Under the pieces are notes generated by a model. It did not search any database. It saw only the letters and a list, made by a program, of their open reading frames with translations, and was not told the DNA's origin. Below are positions 1,666 through 38,674 of a stretch of 38,674 nucleotides of DNA, piece by piece; position 1 is the stretch's first letter; the number at the start of each line of letters is the position of its first letter. Source of the stretch: a candidate division WOR-3 bacterium (GTDB taxonomy: Bacteria; Hydrothermota; Hydrothermia; LBFQ01; DSFT01); contig CBFGJN010000012.1 in assembly GCA_965649115.1 (NCBI GenBank), positions 1-38,674 of the forward strand, in the 5' to 3' direction. The position numbers and the translations under genes are program-made.

Positions 1666-1829
1666 TGCTGTGTCTAGTAATTCTAAAAATATAATTATTT
1701 CTATATTTTCCCCACCCACCCTATATTTAAGCCTTCGGCTTATAAATACCCGTTTAAATCTATAATTTCCTCAAAGCTTTTATAAGTTATTGATAATCAA
1801 GGATTTAACAATAATTATTGGACAAAGCA
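1666..1829 (-). mobile_element. Intergenic repeat family copy (MITE-like, both TIRs, double IHF-like site + hairpin/G-tract module)
   Basis: Ends TGCTGTGTCTAGTAATT / AATTATTGGACAAAGCA (14/17 inverted match); 1756-1829 is the exact 74-bp reverse complement of 17197-17270; TAAGCCTTCGGCTTA at 1728-1742; CCCCACCCACCCT at 1710-1722; extra lone TIR at 1839-1851. Confidence 0.75.
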
Positions 1830-4566: not shown

Positions 4567-4593
4567 AATTTCTGACTTAAAAAGTAAGAAATT
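4567..4593. promoter_or_regulatory. 12-3-12 inverted repeat, candidate operator of the suf operon
   Basis: AATTTCTGACTT-aaa-AAGTAAGAAATT (11/12 match) covering the expected -35 region of the sufC promoter. Confidence 0.45.
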
Positions 4594-4603
4594 TCTGATT
4601 AGG

Positions 4604-4710
4604 ATATTTTTTCCCACCCACCCTATGAAATAAGCCTTCGGCTTAAAAATGCCCGTATTTCGGCAGGGGGCTGACACCCCCATATTAAACCCCCAATAAA
4701 ATCAATAATT
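4604..4710 (-). repeat. Intergenic repeat family copy (internal modules only, TIRs not recognisable)
   Basis: CCCACCCACCCT 4613-4624, TAAGCCTTCGGCTTA 4631-4645, CCC 4652-4654, GGGGG-ctgaca-CCCCC hairpin, CCCCCAATAAAATCAATAATT; boundaries approximate. Confidence 0.75.
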
Positions 4711-4774
4711 AGACTTTTCCCCTTTAAGCTGTACCCCCCCATTTCTCTTAATAATGAACTTTAAACTTTTAAAA

Positions 4775-7460: not shown

Positions 7461-7557
7461 ATTGAAATTTTAAAGTAAAAAATTAAACCTTATGGAATTT
7501 GCTTTGTCCAATAAGTAATTTAAATAATTGATTTTATTTTAGGGGGCTTAGCCCCCT
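7461..7557. repeat. Direct repeat, left copy (97 bp) flanking the RM cassette; contains -10 box (7467-7472, minus), a repeat-family TIR and the AGGGGGC-TTA-GCCCCCT hairpin
   Basis: 96/97 identical to 9679-9775 (single difference g7501/a9719). Confidence 0.93.
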
Positions 7558-7705
7558 ACCGAAAAAAGCATATAGAATTTAGTTATTAAGCACTTTTTCA
7601 GCTACAAGGAATTTAAAATTTGCATATGAATTGCTATGTAGAGCGATTAAATTGAAATTTTATTACAAAAAACAAAAAATGTTCTGTTTGTCTAATGTTT
7701 TTTCA

Positions 7706-8584
7706 TCATTTTGTTTTAAAACTATAATACTCACTTAATCTATCAGTTAATAAATTTGCTAATTGATTGTAAGGTTTAGTATGTTGGTTTTTGAAATATT
7801 CTAATAAAAGTTGTAGTGTAGTTCCTTCTCTAAATATTGCTTTCATTATTCCTTCTTTCCAAAGTATTTCATTTTCAAGAATCTTTCGCCAGGTTCTTAA
7901 TTCTAAATTTTTGATCTCTTCAAAACTCTCTTTGGGAGAGCTATCAAAATTTATTTCTGGCAAATCAGGTAAATTGTCTTTCCATCTTTTTAACCAAATA
8001 AGCATATTCTCCCAAATCTCGGGCCTTTTTAGATAATCAAATAATTCTTTGCCATAGAAAAGATAGAGTTTCACTCCATAAAATTCTTCAAGTCTCTTTA
8101 GTTCTTGAAAATAATAATTCTTATTTTTTGAAAGATCGGGGTCAATGAAATACATAATACCAACCAAGCTTGAGCCGTGTTTCTTATGCAAAATTTCAAG
8201 CTTTGTTTCAAAATTAGATACCTGCCCTCGCTTTTTTGTAGAGTCGTGATCGTCTCTTACTTTTTGCTCAATGAAATAATATATTTGCCCATCTGTGAAA
8301 TACTGATCCAATAATAACTTTTTGCCACTTTCATCTATTATGCTTTTAGCCAAAATTTTAAAACCGAGAGACCTTATTATTTCTTCTACGATTTCTTCAA
8401 GAGCATCACCCATACGAATTTCATGAGATTGAAGTAAATGTTGTAATATCTTTGCGTTAGGTTTTGTCGGTCTAAATAAACCTATAAAGCGCTCGGGTTT
8501 ATCAGCTATTCTTCTTAGTAGCTCTTTCTTTTCACCTTCAAATATATGCTTGTTTAAAATAGTGCAGAATTTTTCATAGTTCAT
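7706..8584 (-). CDS. Type II restriction endonuclease, HpyAIV-like family
   Basis: PERFIGLFRPTKP, QSHEIRMGDALE, DQYF...FIEQKVRDDHDSTKKRGQ (PD-(D/E)xK-type core); 4-nt overlap with MTase. Confidence 0.8.
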   Translation of the reverse strand: MNYEKFCTILNKHIFEGEKKELLRRIADKPERFIGLFRPTKPNAKILQHLLQSHEIRMGDALEEIVEEIIRSLGFKILAKSIIDESGKKLLLDQYFTDGQIYYFIEQKVRDDHDSTKKRGQVSNFETKLEILHKKHGSSLVGIMYFIDPDLSKNKNYYFQELKRLEEFYGVKLYLFYGKELFDYLKRPEIWENMLIWLKRWKDNLPDLPEINFDSSPKESFEEIKNLELRTWRKILENEILWKEGIMKAIFREGTTLQLLLEYFKNQHTKPYNQLANLLTDRLSEYYSFKTK

Positions 8585-9504
8585 TTTAACTCCTCCAAGT
8601 TCAAGTGTTTTTCTATATTTTTCTTATTTAATAGTAGATGGTCTGTTATTTTCAGTGGATGTTTAAATCTTTCTTCTATTGCTTTTACATACTTAGGATT
8701 AATTTCAATCATCACAAAATCTCTTTTTAATGCTTGAGCAACATATCCGGTAGTTCCACTCCCTGCCATAGGATCTAAAATTAAATCTCCTTCTTTCGTA
8801 GATGTCAATATAACTCTTTTAAGAAGTTCAATTGGTTTTTGAGTAGAGTGAATTTTTTTACCTTCTTCATCTTTTAATCTTTCCTTCCCTTGACAAATAG
8901 GAAGAACCCAAACATTTGATCCTACTTTTCCGATACCAAAAGATTTTGCATACTCTTTATTGAATGTATATTTTTTACACTTTTTGTCTTTTACAGCCCA
9001 TATAAGGGTCTCCGTAGCATTTGTAAAGCGAACACCTAACCAATTTGGCATAGGATTTGTTTTCACCCAAATTACATCATTGAGAATCCAAAATCCTAAA
9101 TCCTGCATTATTTTTCCTATCCTAAAAATACTATGATATGTGGAAATAACCCATATTGTAGCAGTAGGTTTCATTACCCTTTTCACTTCAGTAAGAAGCA
9201 GTTTGATAAAATCATCGTATTCCTGAAACGAAGAAAATTTATCCCAGTCATCAGTTACTCCCTCCACCACTGTTTTCACTTTCCATCGTTTTAACTCTTT
9301 TTTTGGCAATTGCAGGAAATAAGGTGGGTCAATAAAAACCATATCAAAAACTTCACTATCTATCTTTTTAAGCACTTTAAAGGCATCTCCTAAAATAACT
9401 TTGTTCTTAATCTCATCTAAAAGATATTTCTGCTTCTCTTCTTTGTCATATACGACAAGGTTCATACTATCATTTAAATTATTTTTAAATAAACTCATTT
9501 GCAT
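8581..9504 (-). CDS. Beta-class N6-adenine DNA methyltransferase, M.HinfI/CcrM/M.HpyAIV-like
   Basis: DPPY before motif I (LDPMAGSGTT); DDWDKF, YHSIFRIG, FWILNDVIWVKTNPMPN, RFTNATETLIWA, HSTQKP. Confidence 0.93.
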   Translation of the reverse strand: MQMSLFKNNLNDSMNLVVYDKEEKQKYLLDEIKNKVILGDAFKVLKKIDSEVFDMVFIDPPYFLQLPKKELKRWKVKTVVEGVTDDWDKFSSFQEYDDFIKLLLTEVKRVMKPTATIWVISTYHSIFRIGKIMQDLGFWILNDVIWVKTNPMPNWLGVRFTNATETLIWAVKDKKCKKYTFNKEYAKSFGIGKVGSNVWVLPICQGKERLKDEEGKKIHSTQKPIELLKRVILTSTKEGDLILDPMAGSGTTGYVAQALKRDFVMIEINPKYVKAIEERFKHPLKITDHLLLNKKNIEKHLNLEELK

Positions 9505-9678: not shown

Positions 9679-9775
9679 ATTGAAATTTTAAAGTAAAAAA
9701 TTAAACCTTATGGAATTTACTTTGTCCAATAAGTAATTTAAATAATTGATTTTATTTTAGGGGGCTTAGCCCCCT
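9679..9775. repeat. Direct repeat, right copy (97 bp) flanking the RM cassette; contains -10 box at 9685-9690 (minus)
   Basis: 96/97 identical to 7461-7557. Confidence 0.93.
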
Positions 9776-9850
9776 GACAAAAAATGGAGATTTTAAAGCC
9801 GAAGGCTTAAATACAGGGTGGGTGGGAAGAATAGGAATTAAATTTTTTTT
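9718..9850 (+). repeat. Intergenic repeat family copy (left TIR, single IHF-like site, C-hairpin, hairpin/G-tract module)
   Basis: TACTTTGTCCAATAA 9718, AGGGGGCTTAGCCCCCT 9759-9775, AAGCCGAAGGCTT 9796-9808, AGGGTGGGTGGG 9815-9826; right end approximate; isolated variant hairpin TAAGGCAAAGCCTTA at 9949-9963. Confidence 0.78.
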
Positions 9851-13749: not shown

Positions 13750-14027
13750 TTATTGGTGTTCTTGAAATTGAAATTTTCATACCTTATAGTAATTCAATAA
13801 AAGAAAAACGCTATATTATCAAAAGTATTAAGGATAAAGTTAAGTCCAAATATAATGTTTCAATAGCTGAACTTGATTATTATGATGCATGGCAAAGAAG
13901 TAAGATAGGATTTGCTTGTTTAAGCAATAGTGTAAGTTATATAAATAACTATCTTATGGATTTATTAAGATTTTTAGAAGAAGATAGAAGATTTGAAATT
14001 ACAATGTCCAAGATAAATTGGTTTTAA
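13746..14027 (+). CDS. DUF503 (YlxP-like) protein
   Basis: [32 protein letters not shown]; usual position after infB. Confidence 0.88.
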   Translation: MIIGVLEIEIFIPYSNSIKEKRYIIKSIKDKVKSKYNVSIAELDYYDAWQRSKIGFACLSNSVSYINNYLMDLLRFLEEDRRFEITMSKINWF

Positions 14028-14093
14028 AAATGCTTTATCCAAAGTAAATAAGTTTTTGCCTCGGCAAAAGATGGAGTATTTATAGAGCTCTCT

Positions 14094-14395
14094 ATGATAG
14101 AAAAATTAAATAAAGTTTTAGAGAAACTACCACCAGAGGATAGAGAAATAATGATGGAAGCATTTACAATTCTTATTGAAGAAGTAATAAATGCTATTAT
14201 TAAAGGAAATGAGAGAATTTGGCAAGCAATTGACAGATTAGACAAAAAAATAGATAGAAAAATAACATCACTTGGGGCAAGGTAGGGATTAATGGCAGAA
14301 GAAACATTCAGAGAAGGAATAAAAACTATAAAGATAGTAAGAGAATAGCAATTGAAATAAAATCATCAATTAGTAAAGGTGATGTTTCTCCATTT
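14094..14395 (+). pseudogene. Degraded DUF3782/DUF1626-like coiled-coil + PD-(D/E)xK nuclease-domain gene
   Basis: Reads ITSLGAR*GLMAEETFREGIKTI through TAG 14283-14285 (family motif LGARWG, TGG>TAG), then after a frameshift/deletion KDSKRIAIEIKSSISKGDVSPF. Confidence 0.7.
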
Positions 14396-14427
14396 GATTT
14401 GCTAATGATAAAGCAATCGTTATTGCT

Positions 14428-14480
14428 AGCGGTTGGGAAAATATAGAAAAATAAATACTTTTAGAATCATTAGATACACG
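14428..14480 (+). repeat. Degenerate right half of the intergenic repeat family
   Basis: AGCGGTTGGGAAAATATAGAAAAATAAATACTTTTAGAATCATTAGATAC matches the G-tract to right-TIR part of other copies. Confidence 0.6.
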
Positions 14481-14495
14481 AATTTCTTTTCACTT

Positions 14496-14501
14496 TAAAA
14501 T
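14496..14501 (+). promoter_or_regulatory. -10 box 7 nt upstream of ATG 14509
   Basis: actt TAAAAT ttcagtt ATG. Confidence 0.6.
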
Positions 14502-14508
14502 TTCAGTT

Positions 14509-16014
14509 ATGAACAACTTAACTCCATTAGAAGCATATGAAGAACTTTACAAAATTTCAAGAAAATTAGCCTATATATCTTCTGCTCTTTCTCTTTCAGG
14601 TTGGGATGAGAGAACTTATATTCCACCTCTTGGCTATAAACATAGAGCCGAACTTCATGCAATACTAAATGAATATATTTATGAAGAATGGACAAAAGAT
14701 TATATAGGTGATTTAATTAACAGAGCAAAGGAAGGAGATTTAGATGAAGTTCAAAAAGCTAATTTATATTGGTGGGAAAGAAGTTATATAAGAAATAAAA
14801 AAATTCCAAAAGAGCTTTTAATTAGACATGTAAGAGTTTCAACAGTCGCTTATCAAGTCTGGAAAGAAGCAAGAGAAAAAAGTGATTTTGAAATGTTCAA
14901 ACCCTACTTGAAAGAAATTATAGATATATTGAGAGAGGAGGCAAGAATTCTTGGTTATAAGAATGAGCCTTATGATGCTTTAATAGATAAATATGAACCA
15001 GAAATGACAGCAGAGGAAATTTCAAAAATTTTTGAAAAGCTAAAAACTGAAACATTAAGACTCCTAAATAGAGTTAAAAATTCTAAAAAGGATTTTAAAA
15101 CCCATCTAATTAAAGGATACTTTGAAAAAGAAAAACAAAAGGAATTTTGTAAATTCTTACTTGAGAAAATAGGTTTTGACTTTAAGAAGGGTAGGCTTGA
15201 TGAAACAACACATCCTTTTGCAACGAGAATTTTACCTATGGATATAAGAATAACTACAAGATTTTATGAGGATAATATCATTTCAAGCATTTTTGGAACA
15301 CTTCACGAGATGGGACATGCATTTTATGAAATGGGATTAAGAGAGGAGTTTTTTGGCACTCCTGCTGGGGAATCAGTTTCGCTTGGTATTCATGAATCAC
15401 AATCAAGATTTTGGGAGAATTTTATAGGAAGAAGCTTCGCATTTTGGGAATTATTCTATGATGATTTGAAGAGATTCTTCCCACAATTTGAAAATGTTAA
15501 AATGGAGCATTTTTATTTAGCAATAAATGAAATTAAACCATCTTTTATTAGAGTTGAAGCAGATGAATTAACTTACAATTTACATATTATTTTAAGATTT
15601 GAGCTTGAAAGGGATGTAATAAATGGTAAATTAGAAGTTGATGATTTAAGAGATGCTTGGAATGAAAAATTTGAAAAATTATTTGGATTTAGACCTAAGG
15701 ATGATAAGGATGGAATTCTTCAAGATGTTCATTGGTCTTCTGAAATGGGATATTTCCCTACATATACACTTGGAAATTTAAATGCTGCTCAAATTTTCCA
15801 TAAAATTAATAAAGAGCTTGGTAATATATATGAATTTGTAAAAAAAGGTGATTTTAAAGTTATTTATGATTGGTTATCTGAAAAGATATATCAAAAAGGT
15901 TCTTTATATAAACCACAAGAGCTTATTGAGAAAACAACAGGTGAAAAAACAAACCCAAAATTCCTAATAAATTATCTTGAAAACAAAATAGAGCACTTAC
16001 TGAGTATAGATTGA
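14509..16014 (+). CDS. Carboxypeptidase M32 (Taq-like)
   Basis: HPF, DIRITT, HEMGH (HExxH), HESQ, IRVEADE, QDVHW, GYFPTYTLG. Confidence 0.96.
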   Translation: MNNLTPLEAYEELYKISRKLAYISSALSLSGWDERTYIPPLGYKHRAELHAILNEYIYEEWTKDYIGDLINRAKEGDLDEVQKANLYWWERSYIRNKKIPKELLIRHVRVSTVAYQVWKEAREKSDFEMFKPYLKEIIDILREEARILGYKNEPYDALIDKYEPEMTAEEISKIFEKLKTETLRLLNRVKNSKKDFKTHLIKGYFEKEKQKEFCKFLLEKIGFDFKKGRLDETTHPFATRILPMDIRITTRFYEDNIISSIFGTLHEMGHAFYEMGLREEFFGTPAGESVSLGIHESQSRFWENFIGRSFAFWELFYDDLKRFFPQFENVKMEHFYLAINEIKPSFIRVEADELTYNLHIILRFELERDVINGKLEVDDLRDAWNEKFEKLFGFRPKDDKDGILQDVHWSSEMGYFPTYTLGNLNAAQIFHKINKELGNIYEFVKKGDFKVIYDWLSEKIYQKGSLYKPQELIEKTTGEKTNPKFLINYLENKIEHLLSID

Positions 16015-16015
16015 A

Positions 16016-17080
16016 TTGGTAATAAATAAAGGGTTTATTTTAGCATATAGAATTTACGACATAGCAAGTGAAATTGATTTAAATAAATTATCAAATTCAA
16101 TAGATTCTAAGAGAATAGAGATGTCAAAGAAATTTGGTAAAAGACTTGTTTATTTGAGAAATCCTCCCATAATTATATTTCTTGAAGAAGTAAGTTATAA
16201 AAATTTGAAAACGCAAGTTTTCGCTAAATTTTATGAATTTGGAGCAGTTAGTATAATCCTAAAAATAATAATTGATGGGTTTGACATAAGGCAATTATTT
16301 AGGTTTTTTAGAGAAGTTCTTGAAGATGAAAAAATAGACGAAATATCAAAAGATTACTTAAACAAAATTTTTAATCAATATCATTCCTACTTAAAAAAGC
16401 CATCAATATATGAAGACTATGAAGATTATACGATAATATATATTCAATCTTTTAATAGAAATTTCAAAAGTTTTGAAATTCTTCAAGAAATTGATTTGGC
16501 TAAACTATTACTTGGTGAGAAATATCATTTAAGTGATCAAATTGAAACTAATTTATTGAGAAATAAGTTTTCTTATTCTGATGAAGATCTAATAGTTTTA
16601 AATTGGGATAGTTGTTTCATATATGAGCCTGATGGTATTATGGATGTTCCTGATCTTATTGAATTTGCTAATGCTCAAATCCTTGAATTAAGATACTACG
16701 ATAGTTATCTTGATAAGGTTCTTGAAGAAACTTATAATACTATTGAGAGTTTCAAAGGTTCAATTTTTGAGTATTATAAATATCAAAAAATTTTGAAGCG
16801 ATTACTTTTGCTTTATAACGAGATTACAGAAGCAAAGGAGATGATTTTAAATAGTCTTAAAATTATTGAAGATTCTTACCTTGCAAGAATATATTCAAAA
16901 ATGCTCGAAATTCTTGGAGCATATAATTGGCAAAGAAGTATAGATAGTAAGGAAAGGACACTCTTTGAAATATACAATTTCTTAAATACCCAAGTTTCTA
17001 ATAGGAGATTGGAATTCCTTGAAATTATAATTATTTTTGTAATTTTAGCTGAAATGATTATTTTTTTAGTAATAAGATAA
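16016..17080 (+). CDS. RMD1/DUF155-like protein with C-terminal TM helix
   Basis: YEFGAVS, EFANAQILELRYYD, DSYLARIY, RRLEFLEIIIIFVI; TTG start 1 nt after upstream stop. Confidence 0.7.
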   Translation: MVINKGFILAYRIYDIASEIDLNKLSNSIDSKRIEMSKKFGKRLVYLRNPPIIIFLEEVSYKNLKTQVFAKFYEFGAVSIILKIIIDGFDIRQLFRFFREVLEDEKIDEISKDYLNKIFNQYHSYLKKPSIYEDYEDYTIIYIQSFNRNFKSFEILQEIDLAKLLLGEKYHLSDQIETNLLRNKFSYSDEDLIVLNWDSCFIYEPDGIMDVPDLIEFANAQILELRYYDSYLDKVLEETYNTIESFKGSIFEYYKYQKILKRLLLLYNEITEAKEMILNSLKIIEDSYLARIYSKMLEILGAYNWQRSIDSKERTLFEIYNFLNTQVSNRRLEFLEIIIIFVILAEMIIFLVIR

Positions 17081-17132
17081 ATAAATAGAAAAAAATAAGT
17101 CAATCCAATAGTAATAATTTCAGATTAAACAT

Positions 17133-17188
17133 GGGGTGGGTGGGAAAAAATAGAAAAATAAATAATTTTATAATTACTAGACAAGGCA
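17133..17188 (+). repeat. Right half of intergenic repeat family (G-tract to right TIR)
   Basis: GGGGTGGGTGGG 17133-17144 ... AATTACTAGACAAGGCA ending 17188. Confidence 0.72.
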
Positions 17189-17196
17189 CAATACAA

Positions 17197-17402
17197 TGCT
17201 TTGTCCAATAATTATTGTTAAATCCTTGATTATCAATAACTTATAAAAGCTTTGAGGAAATTATAGATTTTATGGGGGGATTATTAGGAGGGCTTTGCCC
17301 CCCATAGCCTAAATATGGGAATTTGTAAGCCGAAGGCTTAGTTACAGGGTGGGCGGGCAAAGAATAGAAATAATTTACATTTCAGAATTCCTAGACAAAA
17401 CA
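17197..17402 (+). mobile_element. Full-length (206 bp) copy of the intergenic repeat family, MITE-like, with 8-bp flanking duplication
   Basis: TGCTTTGTCCAATAATT ... AATTCCTAGACAAAACA; CAATACAA at 17189-17196 and 17403-17410; all internal modules present. Confidence 0.8.
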
Positions 17403-17423
17403 CAATACAATAAATTCAAGCTT

Positions 17424-17429
17424 TAAAAT
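17424..17429 (+). promoter_or_regulatory. -10 box 10 nt upstream of rplY ATG
   Basis: gctt TAAAAT tttcggactt ATG. Confidence 0.55.
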
Positions 17430-17439
17430 TTTCGGACTT

Positions 17440-18057
17440 ATGAAAACTTATAAGCTTAGAGTAAAATTAAGAGAAAATATAGGAACTTCATATGCAAAAA
17501 AACAAAGAGAAGAAGGATATATTCCTGCTGTTGCTTATGGTAAAAATGAAAATAATCTTCATATTCTTGTACCTAAAAAAGATTTTTACAAACTAATTAG
17601 ACAAATAGGTGAAGAAACCGCTATTGTTGAGCTTGAATATGATAGTTCTAATAAAAAAGCTCTTATTCAAGAGATTCAAAGAGACATTGTCACTGGTGAA
17701 GTTATTCATGTAGATTTTCACATTATTCATGCAAAAGAAAAGGTTAGTGTAAGTGTTCCTGTAGTTGTTAAAGGTCAGGAAAATTCACCAGGTTTGAAGA
17801 AGGGTGGAATTCTTGAAATTCATTTACATACAATAGATATAAAAGCACTTCCTGAACATATACCCGGGCATATAGAAGTAGATATATCAAATCTTGATAT
17901 AGGAAAAACTATTCATATAAAAGATTTAAGAATTGAAAATGTGGAGTTTGAAGAGGATCCCGAAGAAGTTATTTTATCTATAATAGCTCCAAAAATAGAG
18001 GAAAAAACTGAAACTCAACAACAGACAGAAACACAGCAACAAACACCTCAAAAGTAA
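17440..18057 (+). CDS. rplY: 50S ribosomal protein L25/Ctc
   Basis: GYIPAVAYG, IQRDIV..VIHVDF, GLKKGGIL, IPGHIEVDIS; upstream of pth. Confidence 0.96.
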   Translation: MKTYKLRVKLRENIGTSYAKKQREEGYIPAVAYGKNENNLHILVPKKDFYKLIRQIGEETAIVELEYDSSNKKALIQEIQRDIVTGEVIHVDFHIIHAKEKVSVSVPVVVKGQENSPGLKKGGILEIHLHTIDIKALPEHIPGHIEVDISNLDIGKTIHIKDLRIENVEFEEDPEEVILSIIAPKIEEKTETQQQTETQQQTPQK

Positions 18058-18617
18058 TGCTTTATATTGTTGGTCTTGGTAATTATGGTGAATCTTATAG
18101 GAAAAATAGGCATAATGTTGGATGGATTTTTTTAGATTATTTAGCGAATAAATTGAATTGTTCTTTTAGGTCAGGGAAGGGTGATTATGCTATTGCGGAA
18201 TGTGGTAAATTTAAGCTTTTTAAACCATTAACATTTATGAATTTATCTGGATTAGCTGTTAAGCAAATTTCAGATTATTATAAATTAAATTTTACTAATC
18301 TTATTATTATTTATGATGATGCAGATTTACCATTAGGGACAATCAAGTTCAAATTGAAAGGTTCTGCTGGAACTCATAATGGCATGAAATCTGTTTTGTA
18401 TTATTTGGGAACTGATGAAGTTCCAAGAATAAGAATTGGTATTGGGAAACCTCAAAATTTATCGCTTAAAGATTGGGTTTTATCTGACTTTACAGATGAA
18501 GAGTTAAGAGTTTTAAATGAAAAGTTTGAGAAAATTTATCAGGGTCTTTTGATGTACGAAAGGGGTGAAATCCAAAAAGCTCTTCAATTTATAAATACAA
18601 AGGAGGTAAAGGTATGA
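18057..18617 (+). CDS. pth: Peptidyl-tRNA hydrolase
   Basis: VGLGN, RHNVG, KPLTFMNLSG, GSAGTHNG, RIRIGIG. Confidence 0.96.
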   Translation: MLYIVGLGNYGESYRKNRHNVGWIFLDYLANKLNCSFRSGKGDYAIAECGKFKLFKPLTFMNLSGLAVKQISDYYKLNFTNLIIIYDDADLPLGTIKFKLKGSAGTHNGMKSVLYYLGTDEVPRIRIGIGKPQNLSLKDWVLSDFTDEELRVLNEKFEKIYQGLLMYERGEIQKALQFINTKEVKV

Positions 18618-20710
18618 ATCTTGTTATTTTCTCACTTATATCCGCTGTTGTATCTTTTATTGCTGCTCTTATTTATTCATATATGGTAAGAAAAAAAGAA
18701 GCCGGAACTGATGATATGGTTTCCATTTCTTCATATATTCGTGAGGGTGCAAGAGCCTTCTTAAAAAGAGAATATAAAACTATTGCTATTCTTTCACTTA
18801 TTGTAATTTTAATAATTGCTTTTGGTTTATCATACGAAGGATTAAGCTATGTTATATACACAATTATTGCTTTTGTTTTTGGAGCATTCTTTTCACTGCT
18901 TGCTGGTTGGATAGGAATGGATACCGCTACAATATCTAATGTTAGAACAACTAACGCTGCTAAAAATAAAGGATTAATTGAAGCATTTAAAATTGCTTAT
19001 CTTGGTGGTTCAGTTATGGGTTTAAGTGTTGCAAGTTTATCAATTCTTGGAATGTCTGGACTATTTATTTTATTCTATTTAATTAGTAATGATATTCAAC
19101 TTTCTGCAAGTGTAGTTGCTGGTTTTTCAATGGGTGCTGCATTTGTAGCTCTATTTGCAAGAGTTGGTGGTGGAATATACACTAAGGCAGCTGATGTTGG
19201 AGCTGATTTAGTTGGGAAAGTTGAAGCGGGTATTCCAGAAGATGATCCAAGAAATCCAGCAGTTATAGCAGATAATGTTGGGGATAATGTAGGTGATACT
19301 GCTGGAATGGGAGCAGATTTGTACGACTCACTTGTAGCGGGAACAGTTTCTGCTATTGTAATAGCTGCTTTTGCTAAAAATGCTGATCCTATGTTAGGTA
19401 TAGGTTATGCATTAGCACTTGGTGCTATTGGAACATTAGTTTCTATATTTGGTTATTTCTTTATTGGATTTTTAAAGAATTTAAAGCCTGAAAGGATTTT
19501 GCTTTCAACTGTATTCATTGTTGGTTTATTGTTTGCCATTTTCTCTTTATTTTTAACAAAGGCTTTATTTGGTAATTTAACTCTATTTTGGCCATTAGTT
19601 TTTGGACTTGTTTCAGGGATTTTAATTGGGTACATTGCAGAATTTTTCTCAACAGGCAAAAGGATTGTTGAACTTGCAGAAGCTGCAAATTCAGGTGTTG
19701 CTGTTAATATAATTGAGGGTATTGCATTAGGTATGAGAAGTGCTGTTATTCCTGGTATTGCTGTTGCTATATCATTTGTAATTGCATTTAAAATGGGAGA
19801 GGCAAGTGGGTACGGTGGGTTTTATGGGGTCGCTATTGCTTGTATAGGTATGCTTGCTATAACTGGTATTACTGTCACTGTTGATGCATTTGGTCCTATT
19901 GCTGATAATGCCGGTGGCATTGCTGAAATGTCAGGACTTGGAAAGGAAGTTAGAAGTATAACAGACATTTTAGATGCTGCTGGGAATACTACTGCTGCTA
20001 TTGGAAAAGGTTTTGCTATTGGTTCTGCTATATTTACAGTAATGGCGGTATTTTCTGCATTTTCAGATATGATTACTCAAAGATTTGGTTTAGAATTTAA
20101 TCCTTCTTTAATGAAACCAGAAGTTGTAGCAGCAGCATTAATTGGTGCTATTATTCCATTCTTTTTCTCATCAGGTGCTATGAGAGCTGTTGGAAGAACT
20201 GCTAAAATTGTTGTTGAGGAGGTTAGAAGGCAGTGGAGGGAAATTCCAGGATTACTTGAAGGAAAAGTTGGCGTTAAGGCGGATTATGCTAAGATAGTTG
20301 ATATAACAACGGAAGGTGCTATCAAAAATATGACTGTTCCTGGAATGATTGCATTCCTTTCACCAATTATTGTAGGCATATTATTTGGTCTTGAAGCCCT
20401 TGGTGGATTTTTAGTTGGAGCAATGGTTTCAGGAATTCCTTTGGCTTTAACTATGAATAATGCTGGTGCCGCATGGGATAATGCTAAGAAATTCATTGAG
20501 CAGAGCGGTGCTTTCGGAGGTAAAGGCTCTCAGGCTCATAAAGCAAGTGTTGAAGGTGATACAGTTGGAGATCCATTTAAGGATACTGCTGGTCCCTCTT
20601 TAAATATTTTATTAAAGATGATGTCTATTGTTTCATTAGTATTCTTGCCTTTTATTTATCAATTTCATAATGTTTTAATTAATGCTTTAAAATTTATATT
20701 TGGTAGTTAA
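18614..20710 (+). CDS. hppA: Membrane-integral ion-translocating pyrophosphatase, K+-dependent type
   Basis: GGGIYTKAADVGADLVGKVE, EDDPRN, DNVGDNVGD, GNTTAAIGKG (Ala signature), GDTVGDPFKD. Confidence 0.96.
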   Translation: MNLVIFSLISAVVSFIAALIYSYMVRKKEAGTDDMVSISSYIREGARAFLKREYKTIAILSLIVILIIAFGLSYEGLSYVIYTIIAFVFGAFFSLLAGWIGMDTATISNVRTTNAAKNKGLIEAFKIAYLGGSVMGLSVASLSILGMSGLFILFYLISNDIQLSASVVAGFSMGAAFVALFARVGGGIYTKAADVGADLVGKVEAGIPEDDPRNPAVIADNVGDNVGDTAGMGADLYDSLVAGTVSAIVIAAFAKNADPMLGIGYALALGAIGTLVSIFGYFFIGFLKNLKPERILLSTVFIVGLLFAIFSLFLTKALFGNLTLFWPLVFGLVSGILIGYIAEFFSTGKRIVELAEAANSGVAVNIIEGIALGMRSAVIPGIAVAISFVIAFKMGEASGYGGFYGVAIACIGMLAITGITVTVDAFGPIADNAGGIAEMSGLGKEVRSITDILDAAGNTTAAIGKGFAIGSAIFTVMAVFSAFSDMITQRFGLEFNPSLMKPEVVAAALIGAIIPFFFSSGAMRAVGRTAKIVVEEVRRQWREIPGLLEGKVGVKADYAKIVDITTEGAIKNMTVPGMIAFLSPIIVGILFGLEALGGFLVGAMVSGIPLALTMNNAGAAWDNAKKFIEQSGAFGGKGSQAHKASVEGDTVGDPFKDTAGPSLNILLKMMSIVSLVFLPFIYQFHNVLINALKFIFGS

Positions 20711-22654: not shown

Positions 22655-24280
22655 ATGCCAAGACAGAAAGGACTTGTTAAAAACAGGATACAAAGACTAA
22701 ATAAACTAATATCAAGACTTATAAAGGAAGCAAAAGAAAGTGGTAATAAAGTTAGATATGAGGAACTTATAAAGAAAATTCCACCTGAATACGGAGAAGG
22801 AACAGAAGCATTTGATGTTATAATTACAGCTTTGCTTGATAATGGAATTGAAATTGAATATCATGATAGAAAAACACTATCTGAAATTTATGAATTTGAA
22901 GATGATGAAGAATCAAAAATTGGTGATGACCCTGCTAAAATTTATCTTAAACAAATAGCAAATTTGGGGCTTTTAACAAAAGAACAGGAAGTCCAATATG
23001 CAAAAGAAATTGACGATGCAAGAAATGGTATTACAAAATTACTATTTTCAACGAAGTACGGAATAAAGAAATTTTTAAAGTGGATTGAACAAATTGAATA
23101 TGGAGTTTTGCCTCTTGAAGAAATTGTTAGTGTAGATCCAAATTATTGGACAAGCAAAAAGAAAAATAGAGAAGAAAAAGAAAGAATTAAAAGTGCATTT
23201 GATAAAATAAGACAACTTTATGAGAAAAAGAAATTTTCAGAAATTACAGAAATTATATTAGAACTAAAACCCAATTTCAGAAAAGTTATGGAAGTTGTTG
23301 AGAAGATGAAAGAGATTTTTAGAAAATTTGAAGAAATCTATTTAAGAAAAAAGGATATTGAAATTGCTGTAAGCGAATTAGAAAATAGTTCATTATTAAG
23401 TGAAGATGAATCTGAGGATATAGGGTCATTAAAAGAAGAATTAAAAAAGCTTGAAAAGGAGGTTAAAAATTATGAAAATTATTTTGGTTATTCTTATGAA
23501 GAGATGAAGAAATTAATTGAAGAAATTAATAAATTATTTAGTCAATATGAAGAAGCAAAAAGTAAGATGGTAAAAGGTAATTTGAGACTTGTAATTGGAG
23601 TTGCTAAAAAGTTTTTAAATAGGGGACTTGAATTTATGGATTTGGTCCAAGAAGGAAATGCGGGATTAATGAAAGCGGTTGAAAAATTTGATTATAGAAA
23701 AGGATACAAATTCTCTACTTATGCTACTTGGTGGATAAAGCAGTCTATAATGAGAGCAATAGCAGACCATGCAAGAACTATAAGAATACCAATTCATATG
23801 ATAGAAACAATTATGAGAATTACAAAAGCTAATAGAATTTTAACACAAGAATTTGGTAGAGAACCAACTTATGAAGAAATTTCGGAGTACCTAAACATGC
23901 CTATTGAAAAAGTTAGACAAGCTATTGAAGCCGCAAAAGAGCCTATAAGCATGGATAAACCTATTGGCAAAGATGAAGATGCATATATTGGAGATTTTAT
24001 TGCTGATAACATCTATGGAACACCTTTTGAAGATGCTAAAAGAACACTTATGAGGGAAAAAATAATGGAAGTTTTAGAAACCTTAACTTCAAGAGAAAGA
24101 AAAATTTTAATTATGAGATATGGTTTAGATGGTAGGCCTCCGAGATCACTTGATGATGTTGCTATGGAACTTGGTATTTCAAGAGAAAGGGTTAGACAGA
24201 TTGAAGCGAGAGCTATGGCTAAGATAAAGAATAATGAACTTAGAAGACAAAAACTCATTCAGCTAATAAATCCAGAATGA
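22655..24280 (+). CDS. rpoD: Primary RNA polymerase sigma factor
   Basis: Region 1.2 [48 protein letters not shown]; follows dnaG. Confidence 0.96.
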
Positions 24281-30115: not shown

Positions 30116-30545
30116 TGATTTGTCTAGTAATTCTGAAATATAGATTATTTCTTATTTTGCCCACCCACCCTGAAAATAAGGCTTCGCCTTAGCTTCGCCC
30201 CCCTATAATCCCCCATAAAGTCAATAATTTCTTTAAAAATTTTATAAGTTATTGACTATCAATCACTTAACACTATTAAGTAGTTTAAATAATTGATTTT
30301 ATTGGTTGTTTCTTAGTAGGGGGCGTTAGCCTCCTGACAAAAAGTAGGGTTTTTTAAAGCCGAAAGCTTATTTTTAGGGTGGTTGGGTAAAATAAGAAAG
30401 ATAATGCTTTAACTTATGAAAATTTTTTAAAACTCATTTATTTTATAGGGGGTTCTTAAATGGGGATTTAAAGTTGAAGGCTTATTTCGTAGGCTGGATG
30501 GGGAAAAAGAAAAAATAAATAGTTTTAGAATTATTGGACAAGGTA
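30116..30545. repeat. Composite of three intergenic repeat family copies (one minus, two plus) filling the divergent intergenic gap
   Basis: TIR TGATTTGTCTAGTAATT 30116; C-tract 30160-30171; TAAGGCTTCGCCTTA 30177-30191; double IHF-like 30245-30269; AGGGGGCGTTAGCCTCCT; AAGCCGAAAGCTT 30357-30369; AAGTTGAAGGCTT 30471-30483; TIR TTATTGGACAAGGTA ending 30545. Confidence 0.8.
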
Positions 30546-38332: not shown

Positions 38333-38674
38333 TGAAAATAAAAATTTTGATGAGGGCAAAAAAATGGGATTTTTTAAGCCAAAGGCTTAATTCGTAGGGT
38401 GGAAGGGAAAAATTGGACACAGCACTTTTATTTTGATTTGTTCAATAAATAGTGTTAAGTCCTTGAATATCAATAACTTATTAAAGTTTTGATGAAACTA
38501 TTGATTTAAAGCCCCCAAAGGCAAAATTGGACAAAACAATTTATTTTTGCTTTGTCTAGTAAATGGTGTTAAATAATTGATAATCAATAACTTATGAAAT
38601 TTTAAGAAAATCATTAATATGGGTAAGTAGAGCCGAAGGCTCAATTATAGGGCGGGCGGGAAAAATATAGAAAT
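38317..38674 (+). repeat. Tandem array of three intergenic repeat family copies (38317-38424, 38434-38538, 38548 to window end)
   Basis: Each unit starts with TGMTYTGTYYA and the first two end TTGGACAMARCA; 9-nt spacers; hairpins at 38375-38389 and 38630-38642; double IHF-like sites at 38456-38480 and 38570-38594. Confidence 0.82.

Follow-up and report, generated by a model that had tools for sequence, protein, structure and literature searches.

A MITE positioned at a fixed distance upstream of promoter boxes, and its likely IS903-like parent, in a candidate division WOR-3 bacterium

The copy upstream of rplY and its relatives in the window

The window analysed here (the whole stretch of 38,674 nucleotides, contig C12) belongs to a 1.85-Mb assembly of 27.6% G+C in 99 contigs, termed G000; its congeners are termed G001-G004, and the assemblies are fragmented throughout. 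A full-length copy of a miniature element (MITE) lies directly upstream of rplY, behind a right-end remnant of another copy, and further copies are spread over the window:

17125..17188, + strand: remnant (right end) of a second copy, placed head-to-tail before the full one
17189..17196, + strand: left 8-bp target duplication, doubling as spacer to the upstream remnant
17197..17402, + strand: full-length MITE copy, 206 bp, right end facing the rplY promoter
17197..17211, + strand: left terminal inverted repeat; consensus equals the parent IS left end at 15/15 and 24/26 bases
17219..17243, strandless: palindrome with two putative IHF-like sites, read from sequence
17287..17303, + strand: G/C hairpin 1, loop seen in both orientations across copies
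17326..17338, + strand: hairpin 2, AAGCC-GAA-GGCTT, read from sequence
17346..17357, + strand: G-rich block, conservation 0.93
17388..17402, + strand: right terminal inverted repeat, imperfect in this copy; consensus equals the IS right end at 15/18 bases
17403..17410, + strand: right 8-bp target duplication, read from sequence
17424..17429, + strand: TAAAAT hexamer, host -10-like box; the element ends 21 bp before it and rplY starts 10 bp after it
17440..18057, + strand: rplY (ribosomal protein L25/Ctc), the downstream gene
1666..1829, - strand: 164-bp internally deleted copy, both ends present, a promoter box 21 bp away from the right one
4591..4711, - strand: partial copy (profile match)
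7500..7557, + strand: left-end fragment, read from sequence
9718..9849, + strand: partial copy with decayed left end (profile match)
14425..14478, + strand: decayed right-end remnant (profile match)
30116..30545, both strands: three partial copies between divergent genes (one -, two +)
38355..38674, + strand: three partial head-to-tail copies reaching the contig end (profile matches)

The copy at 17197-17402 reads GGGTGGGCGGG and carries the 8-bp duplication CAATACAA on both flanks. Its first 74 bp are the exact reverse complement of 1756-1829; the initial annotation, which placed these elements and described their motifs correctly, had reported both the duplication and this identity, to which can be added that the copy has this 74-bp run in common with five loci, and a different 72-bp run with a sixth. 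The copy thus looks mosaic, with the nearest full-length copy only about 89% similar. The estimate of about 13 copies in the window also stands (12 profile matches plus the fragment at 7500), whilst the statement that the repeat fills almost every intergenic gap goes too far, as, among gaps of at least 100 bp, 7 of 11 are occupied within the window and 317 of 539 across the genome, gaps being delimited by a crude ORF caller. Loss of whole modules, described as clean, is likewise only part of the pattern: the 133 deletions of at least 10 bp, in 106 of 231 copies, form about 45 clusters, many of them cutting within modules.

The sites within the palindrome at 17219-17243 are ones we take to be IHF-like from the IHF consensus, their binding being predicted only; the genome has three HU/IHF-family matches. 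Column conservation across copies is 0.86 for this palindrome, and the G-rich block is the best conserved interior part. The loop of hairpin 1 occurs in both orientations genome-wide (CGAAG 31, CTTCG 19; CAAAG 17, CTTTG 13), as if by templated inversion, and hairpin 2 exists in a double-changed form in 37 copies.

Four hot-spring metagenome runs from two studies hold at least half of the words of a window stretch, one of them possibly being the source, and contigs of run X2 span both junctions of 17197-17402 with zero differences. No joint removing the copy was found in reads and contigs of 4 of 21 runs over positions 13800-19000 (15 of 22 joints), and neither these joints nor the congener rplY loci yielded an empty-site allele for it. 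The rplY box is present in all four congeners: the orthologues in G001, G003 and G004 have the box, no element and a different upstream gene, and at the G002 locus a right-end remnant lies about 23 bp upstream.

Elsewhere in the window, a 113-bp, 94% direct repeat (7461-7573 and 9679-9791), made up of a leftward promoter box and an element left end, lies on either side of a gene pair (7706-9504) for an HpyAIV-like restriction enzyme and a methyltransferase, which is possibly an element-linked insertion. A short coiled-coil-like reading frame at 14050-14350 has variant copies in other contigs of the compared metagenome runs.

Abundance, mobility and a candidate parent

The repeat is about 205 bp long, non-coding, and makes up about 5% of the 1.85-Mb genome. 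Its terminal-repeat ends, counted with an end matrix, number 844 against 4 in the shuffled genome used as control, and AAGCCGAAGGCTT occurs 196 times against 0. A profile built from 148 full-length copies, mostly of 202-208 bp, returns 761 matches amounting to about 100 kb on 93 of the 99 contigs, such that the family is not confined to the window. These full-length copies are short, have conserved terminal inverted repeats and hold no transposase ORF; the repeat is a MITE. Many assembly breaks at contig ends are due to young MITE copies that hardly differ from one another (22 ends in one cluster), and the insertion sequence (IS) described below also causes breaks (16 and 8 contig ends in two clusters), so that the youngest copies are under-counted. 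Two types of repeat make up the CRISPR-like arrays at the ends of contigs C4, C32, C35 and C43.

Of the 64 class genomes searched for an exact end pattern, G000 has 543 occurrences, G002 179, G013 6 and three further genomes one each, with zero in 58; the element is absent from the 400 kb of G004 searched (of about 1.6 Mb). The initial annotation did not recognise the architecture from described repeat families; an Rfam search of the window gave 0 matches at the gathering score. Searches of the repeat against phage and plasmid sequences returned no match, and a generic sigma-70 scan of it stayed at chance level.

Exact target duplications flank 102 of the 221 two-ended copies lying away from contig ends (shuffled pairings: mean 0.9), with a length of 9 bp in 92 and 8 bp in 10, and 22 more copies have near matches; the family norm being 9 bp, the copy at 17197-17402 is a minority case. 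As for copies without duplications, mis-assembly as the main cause is disfavoured, since the exact runs that these copies have in common with other loci are shorter (median 58 versus 95 bp; none of at least 150), which argues for age and recombination instead. Recombination between copies and adjacent deletions are given as frequent causes of missing duplications, the latter being common in IS903, in the excerpted text of PMC11708052. One empty-site allele was found in a relative, at a locus other than 17197-17402: the copy at C4:35714-35925, an off-target insertion inside an open reading frame, is matched in G002 (L072) by a single target copy in a continuous open frame.

At ten contig ends of G000 the left end of the MITE recurs, leading into a promoter box and a reading frame, and sixteen carry the matching right end of an IS. 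The left-end piece encodes an N-terminal protein 93-96% identical to P0002, a transposase of 300 aa, and the right-end piece encodes the last 14 residues of P0002 exactly; the parent IS would be about 1.05 kb long, judging from these sequences. P0002 scores 245 bits against the NCBIfam IS5-family model NF033579 (cut-off 140), lies above the cut-offs of PF13737 and PF01609, has a triad (D115, D194, E256) that is invariant in 19 homologues, and has a predicted fold resembling DDE enzymes with weak scores. Its nearest named relative is ISHysp1, at 43% identity, and it is about 30% identical to the named plasmid IS5 transposases of ISVa1 and ISAba10, which, with related elements, we take to belong to the IS903 group. 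The parent is thus likely to be of the IS5 family (IS903-like), and the initial annotation's reading of the terminal repeats as IS903-like proved a good lead, the transposase passing the NF033579 and PF13737 cut-offs.

The link between MITE and IS is made by their ends and their duplications. The two agree at 24 of 26 left-end and 15 of 18 right-end bases, and for 7 of the 10 IS left ends the flank recurs beside a right end on another contig (9 bp in six cases, 8 bp in one), so the IS makes the same duplication as the MITE. No alignment was found between the MITE interior and the assembled IS end pieces; a derivation of the interior from the IS ends has no convincing alignment behind it (best 4/300 shuffles, AT-rich, in one of four tests). 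The search for a transposase with the same ends thus recovered the ends of the IS, the middle of its gene being missing from the assembly. Searches of G000 with IS256 (PF00872), IS4/5 (PF01609) and PF13737 models gave no match, missing the parent because only IS ends are assembled, and PF06782 (ISLre2) gave none either, with its positive control also unmatched; a degraded IS256-like fragment in G003 (L011:218-613) is unrelated to the MITE/IS family. P0002 had no match in the four congeners, including the element-rich G002, and a metagenome locus scan with a 56-aa piece found three distant loci only. With the middle of the gene unassembled and P0002 unmatched in the congeners, it is only by inference that we speak of transposase activity in this strain.

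Most likely, the MITE is moved by the IS903-like insertion sequence of the same genome, whose DDE transposase would act on it in trans via the shared ends. Mobilisation in trans was the initial annotation's own proposal, and the genome-wide copies, the exact duplications, an IS with the same ends and one empty allele all point the same way.

The initial annotation also likened the family to REPINs and suggested possible domestication. REP/REPIN-RAYT systems share with the present repeat their short GC hairpins and their intergenic abundance, and the two hairpins and the IHF-like palindrome could be read as signs either of a REPIN/BIME-like repeat moved by an HuH (RAYT) transposase or of a host-domesticated regulatory element; both readings we regard as very improbable. 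REP/REPIN-RAYT systems use a Y1 transposase, yet the RAYT model PF01797 was unmatched in five of five genomes (87-95% complete; controls matched in 6 of 14), and what is found instead are terminal repeats, 9-bp duplications and a parent of DDE type, the hallmarks of DDE transposition. The whole element folds as RNA no better than shuffles (z -1.1), and a terminator-like site was looked for and not found. Against domestication, promoter occupancy differs between congeners (of 71 orthologous promoters, 19 are occupied in G000 alone, 7 in G002 alone, 6 in both and 39 in neither), as does the presence of the element itself, given its absence from the G004 sequence searched.

Landing sites relative to the promoter box

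The initial annotation overlooked the fixed position of the copies upstream of promoter boxes, which is the repeat's most unusual property. We scored the box in two ways, with the strict motif CTTTAAAATTT and with a matrix derived from the element-free congener G004, and compared 217 left ends with 358 'free' right ends, that is, those not adjoining another copy. By the strict motif, 126 free right ends lie 22 bp upstream of TAAAAT, 41 lie 21 bp and 32 lie 14 bp upstream, so that 167 of 358 fall at 21-22 bp versus 4 of 217 left ends. The matrix places 181 of 358 at 21-22 bp (versus 3 of 217 left ends), 63 at 13-16 bp and 10 at 23-60 bp, and 99 of 358 have no box within 60 bp. The same distance holds for 11 of 16 IS right ends and, in the 391 kb of G002 searched, for 19 of 33 right ends against 0 of 18 left ends. 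The copy at 17197-17402 obeys the rule, with 21 bp to the rplY box and an 8-bp duplication.

The box is the host's own, being found in the element-free G004. ATGs mostly follow it by 6-11 bp and it stands 7-16 bp before 29 of 45 tRNA genes; from its position alone, it would act as the -10 element of nearly leaderless genes, in which case 21-22 bp corresponds to about -34. The G004 loci L084-L103 show a single strong promoter box for the genus, with very short leaders and a -35 region that is not conserved. The RpoD of the genus (window 22655-24280) departs in region 4.2, at several positions, from that of the other members of the class.

Viewed from the side of the target, 142 of 442 promoter-like motifs have an element end at 13-15 or 21-22 bp, versus none of 3029 motifs within ORFs. 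No consensus emerges from the duplicated 9-mers, and two IS copies are inserted within an older element's end at 21-22 bp, which indicates that distance, not target sequence, decides. For related IS in other hosts (G013, Aquificaceae, Aminicenantes and others, whose promoters may differ from the pattern used), 0 of 39 ends have a -10-like hexamer at 21-22 bp, a count that omits 5 further listed matches and 4 rows (congener MITE or single chance-like hits); the promoter rule therefore looks lineage-specific. For three of these 39 ends, all in Aquificaceae (L107, L114, L043), a TATAAT-like box is 6-9 bp away and a gene begins at 22-23 bp, a small sample.

A pattern of this kind could also arise from loose AT-biased insertion and survivorship, with copies in genes or near the box purged, or the right end kept as a -35-like hexamer. 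Long ORFs do hold only 15 of 845 element ends, the right end does contain TAGACA/TGGACA, and one ORF insertion exists (C4:35714-35925). Selection would, however, give an edge and not a spike (181 ends at 21-22 bp against 10 at 23-60 bp), and the distance between box and -35-like hexamer in the main class would be 26-27 bp instead of about 17; the element-free G004 promoters have no -35 conservation to begin with, and young IS copies obey the rule as well. We consider survivorship quite unlikely.

We suggest that it is the promoter that would position the transpososome, such that the right end is set 21-22 bp upstream of TAAAAT, with a second landing register near 14 bp from the box. The chances are about even, in our judgement, that this positioning runs via the host RNA polymerase/sigma complex or the DNA shape that it makes. 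A predicted complex of the transposase with RpoD regions 2-4, its controls not having been folded, scored 0.00 and weighs neither for nor against this.

The transposase may alternatively read DNA directly, since the box often starts TGCTTT, like the transposon end, and could serve as an end mimic or shape signal without any polymerase; this we rate as a serious possibility, somewhat short of even. Presumably, a target at -34 to -26 would fall within the normal holoenzyme footprint, which we count in favour of direct reading, as we do the small size of the transposase (300 aa), matched by DDE-type families alone. The 14-bp class is enriched for boxes starting TGCTTT (14 of 33 versus 30 of 179 in the main class, p=0.002), which favours some direct reading; such a box puts the right end 9 bp before TGCTTT, as at stack junctions, and one IS right end (C42), which does not follow the promoter rule, is 9 bp away from a MITE right end. 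The main 21-22 bp class, however, carries TGCTTT at those 30 sites only, and full boxes are hit preferentially before gene starts (151 of 391, versus 43 of 179 elsewhere between genes and 9 of 67 in ORFs), though selection could also cause this bias.

Stacks, gene order and known systems

The target persists on the promoter side after each insertion, so that repeated hits build head-to-tail stacks with 9-bp spacers. Head-to-tail junctions with exactly 9 bp number 97, versus 5 in other orientations, and for 38 of 75 spacers at internal junctions an identical copy exists locally. Of the other 37, counted without sites within 450 bp of contig ends, 11 match the flank of a distant locus (shuffle mean 1.7, maximum 5), some being of low complexity; without that filter the figure is 28 of 58, inflated by contig breaks. 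In several stacks of two copies the outer flanks are equal and the spacer between the copies is foreign, which suggests dimer hopping or recombination. A tendency for the newest copy to lie nearest the gene is weak (20 versus 9, p=0.06).

Element-bearing gaps mark gene-order breakpoints. With synteny scored on about a quarter of each congener, adjacency is broken relative to G002, which carries the element too, in 48 of 67 element gaps versus 7 of 29 element-free promoter gaps (p=3e-5), and relative to G004 in 88 of 89 versus 36 of 43 (p=0.002). As the copies are co-oriented before intact -10 boxes, recombination between them would exchange what precedes a transcription unit; from the lost duplications, travelling spacers, mosaics and synteny breaks, we infer such upstream swapping, in which recombination or adjacent rearrangement between copies would leave gene and box uncut.

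Synthesising these findings, we think it highly probable that a MITE of about 205 bp is moved in trans by a co-resident IS5-family DDE transposase (IS of about 1.05 kb), with oriented, promoter-anchored landing, stacking and shuffling. More tentatively, and rating the whole as less likely than not, we speculate that a lineage-specific IS5 transposase independently gained tethering to RNA polymerase/sigma on -35-less promoters, that the MITE made at least a third of promoters same-orientation recombination joints, at which units were shuffled as intact cassettes, and that the 9-bp stack spacers record earlier landing sites.

For the comparison with described systems, we assume the IS903-type group labels of the elements concerned. 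The present pair resembles IS5/IS903-like systems in its IS of about 1.05 kb, its DDE transposase of about 300 aa (NF033579, PF13737), its 9-bp duplication and its short non-coding derivative, here probably moved in trans. As far as the source excerpts go, IS903-type elements with 9-bp duplications are described for IS903/IS602 (PMC9282650), MITEs from such elements for MITEAba12 with ISAba12 (PMC6382973), and a MITE with its partner IS for Sulfolobus SM3A with ISC1058 (PMC3718332). The terminal repeats here resemble ends tabulated in the part of PMC6382973 at hand; there, MITEAba12 has an AT-rich site preference with no sequence trend, and no fixed promoter distance or stacking is reported, unlike the present repeat with its hundreds of copies, oriented 21-22 bp rule and stacks.

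A likeness in landing, in the excerpted text of PMC3942029, is with TnGBS ICEs and IS of the ISLre2 family and ISKra4 group, whose insertion is oriented, right end promoter-side, at a fixed distance: p-MULT 3 and 4 lie 15-17 bp upstream of the -35 box, and RNA polymerase tethering is proposed there, not demonstrated. Those elements use Mutator-type transposases, whereas the parent here is of IS5 type and PF00872 is unmatched in G000; they insert upstream of the -35 box, whereas here the landing site is about where a -35 would be, at promoters without a conserved one; and that text describes no MITE stacks, which are present here. Correia, ERIC, RUP/BOX/SPRITE and other bacterial MITEs are, in the portion of PMC10969869 used, likewise intergenic, in hundreds of copies and in size variants, with an IHF site in Correia and clustering in RUP/BOX, and section 3.3 of that review names no fixed-distance promoter rule for them. 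Within literature coverage that stopped short of the original IS903 target studies and was partly by excerpt, we found no report of oriented promoter targeting by IS5 elements or by this repeat. Oriented promoter insertion is thus known for Mutator-type IS, and the new part, as far as these sources reach, is a promoter-anchored IS5 MITE and its link with gene order.

How transposases find promoters could be studied in a compact setting with this IS5 enzyme of 300 aa and its hundreds of natural landing sites, and relatives at 40-50% identity that apparently lack the rule make swap experiments possible; a tool for insertion upstream of promoters might also start from it. For the organism itself, the rule provides a route by which a MITE may fill 5% of a small genome, its genes unbroken and its gene order loosened.
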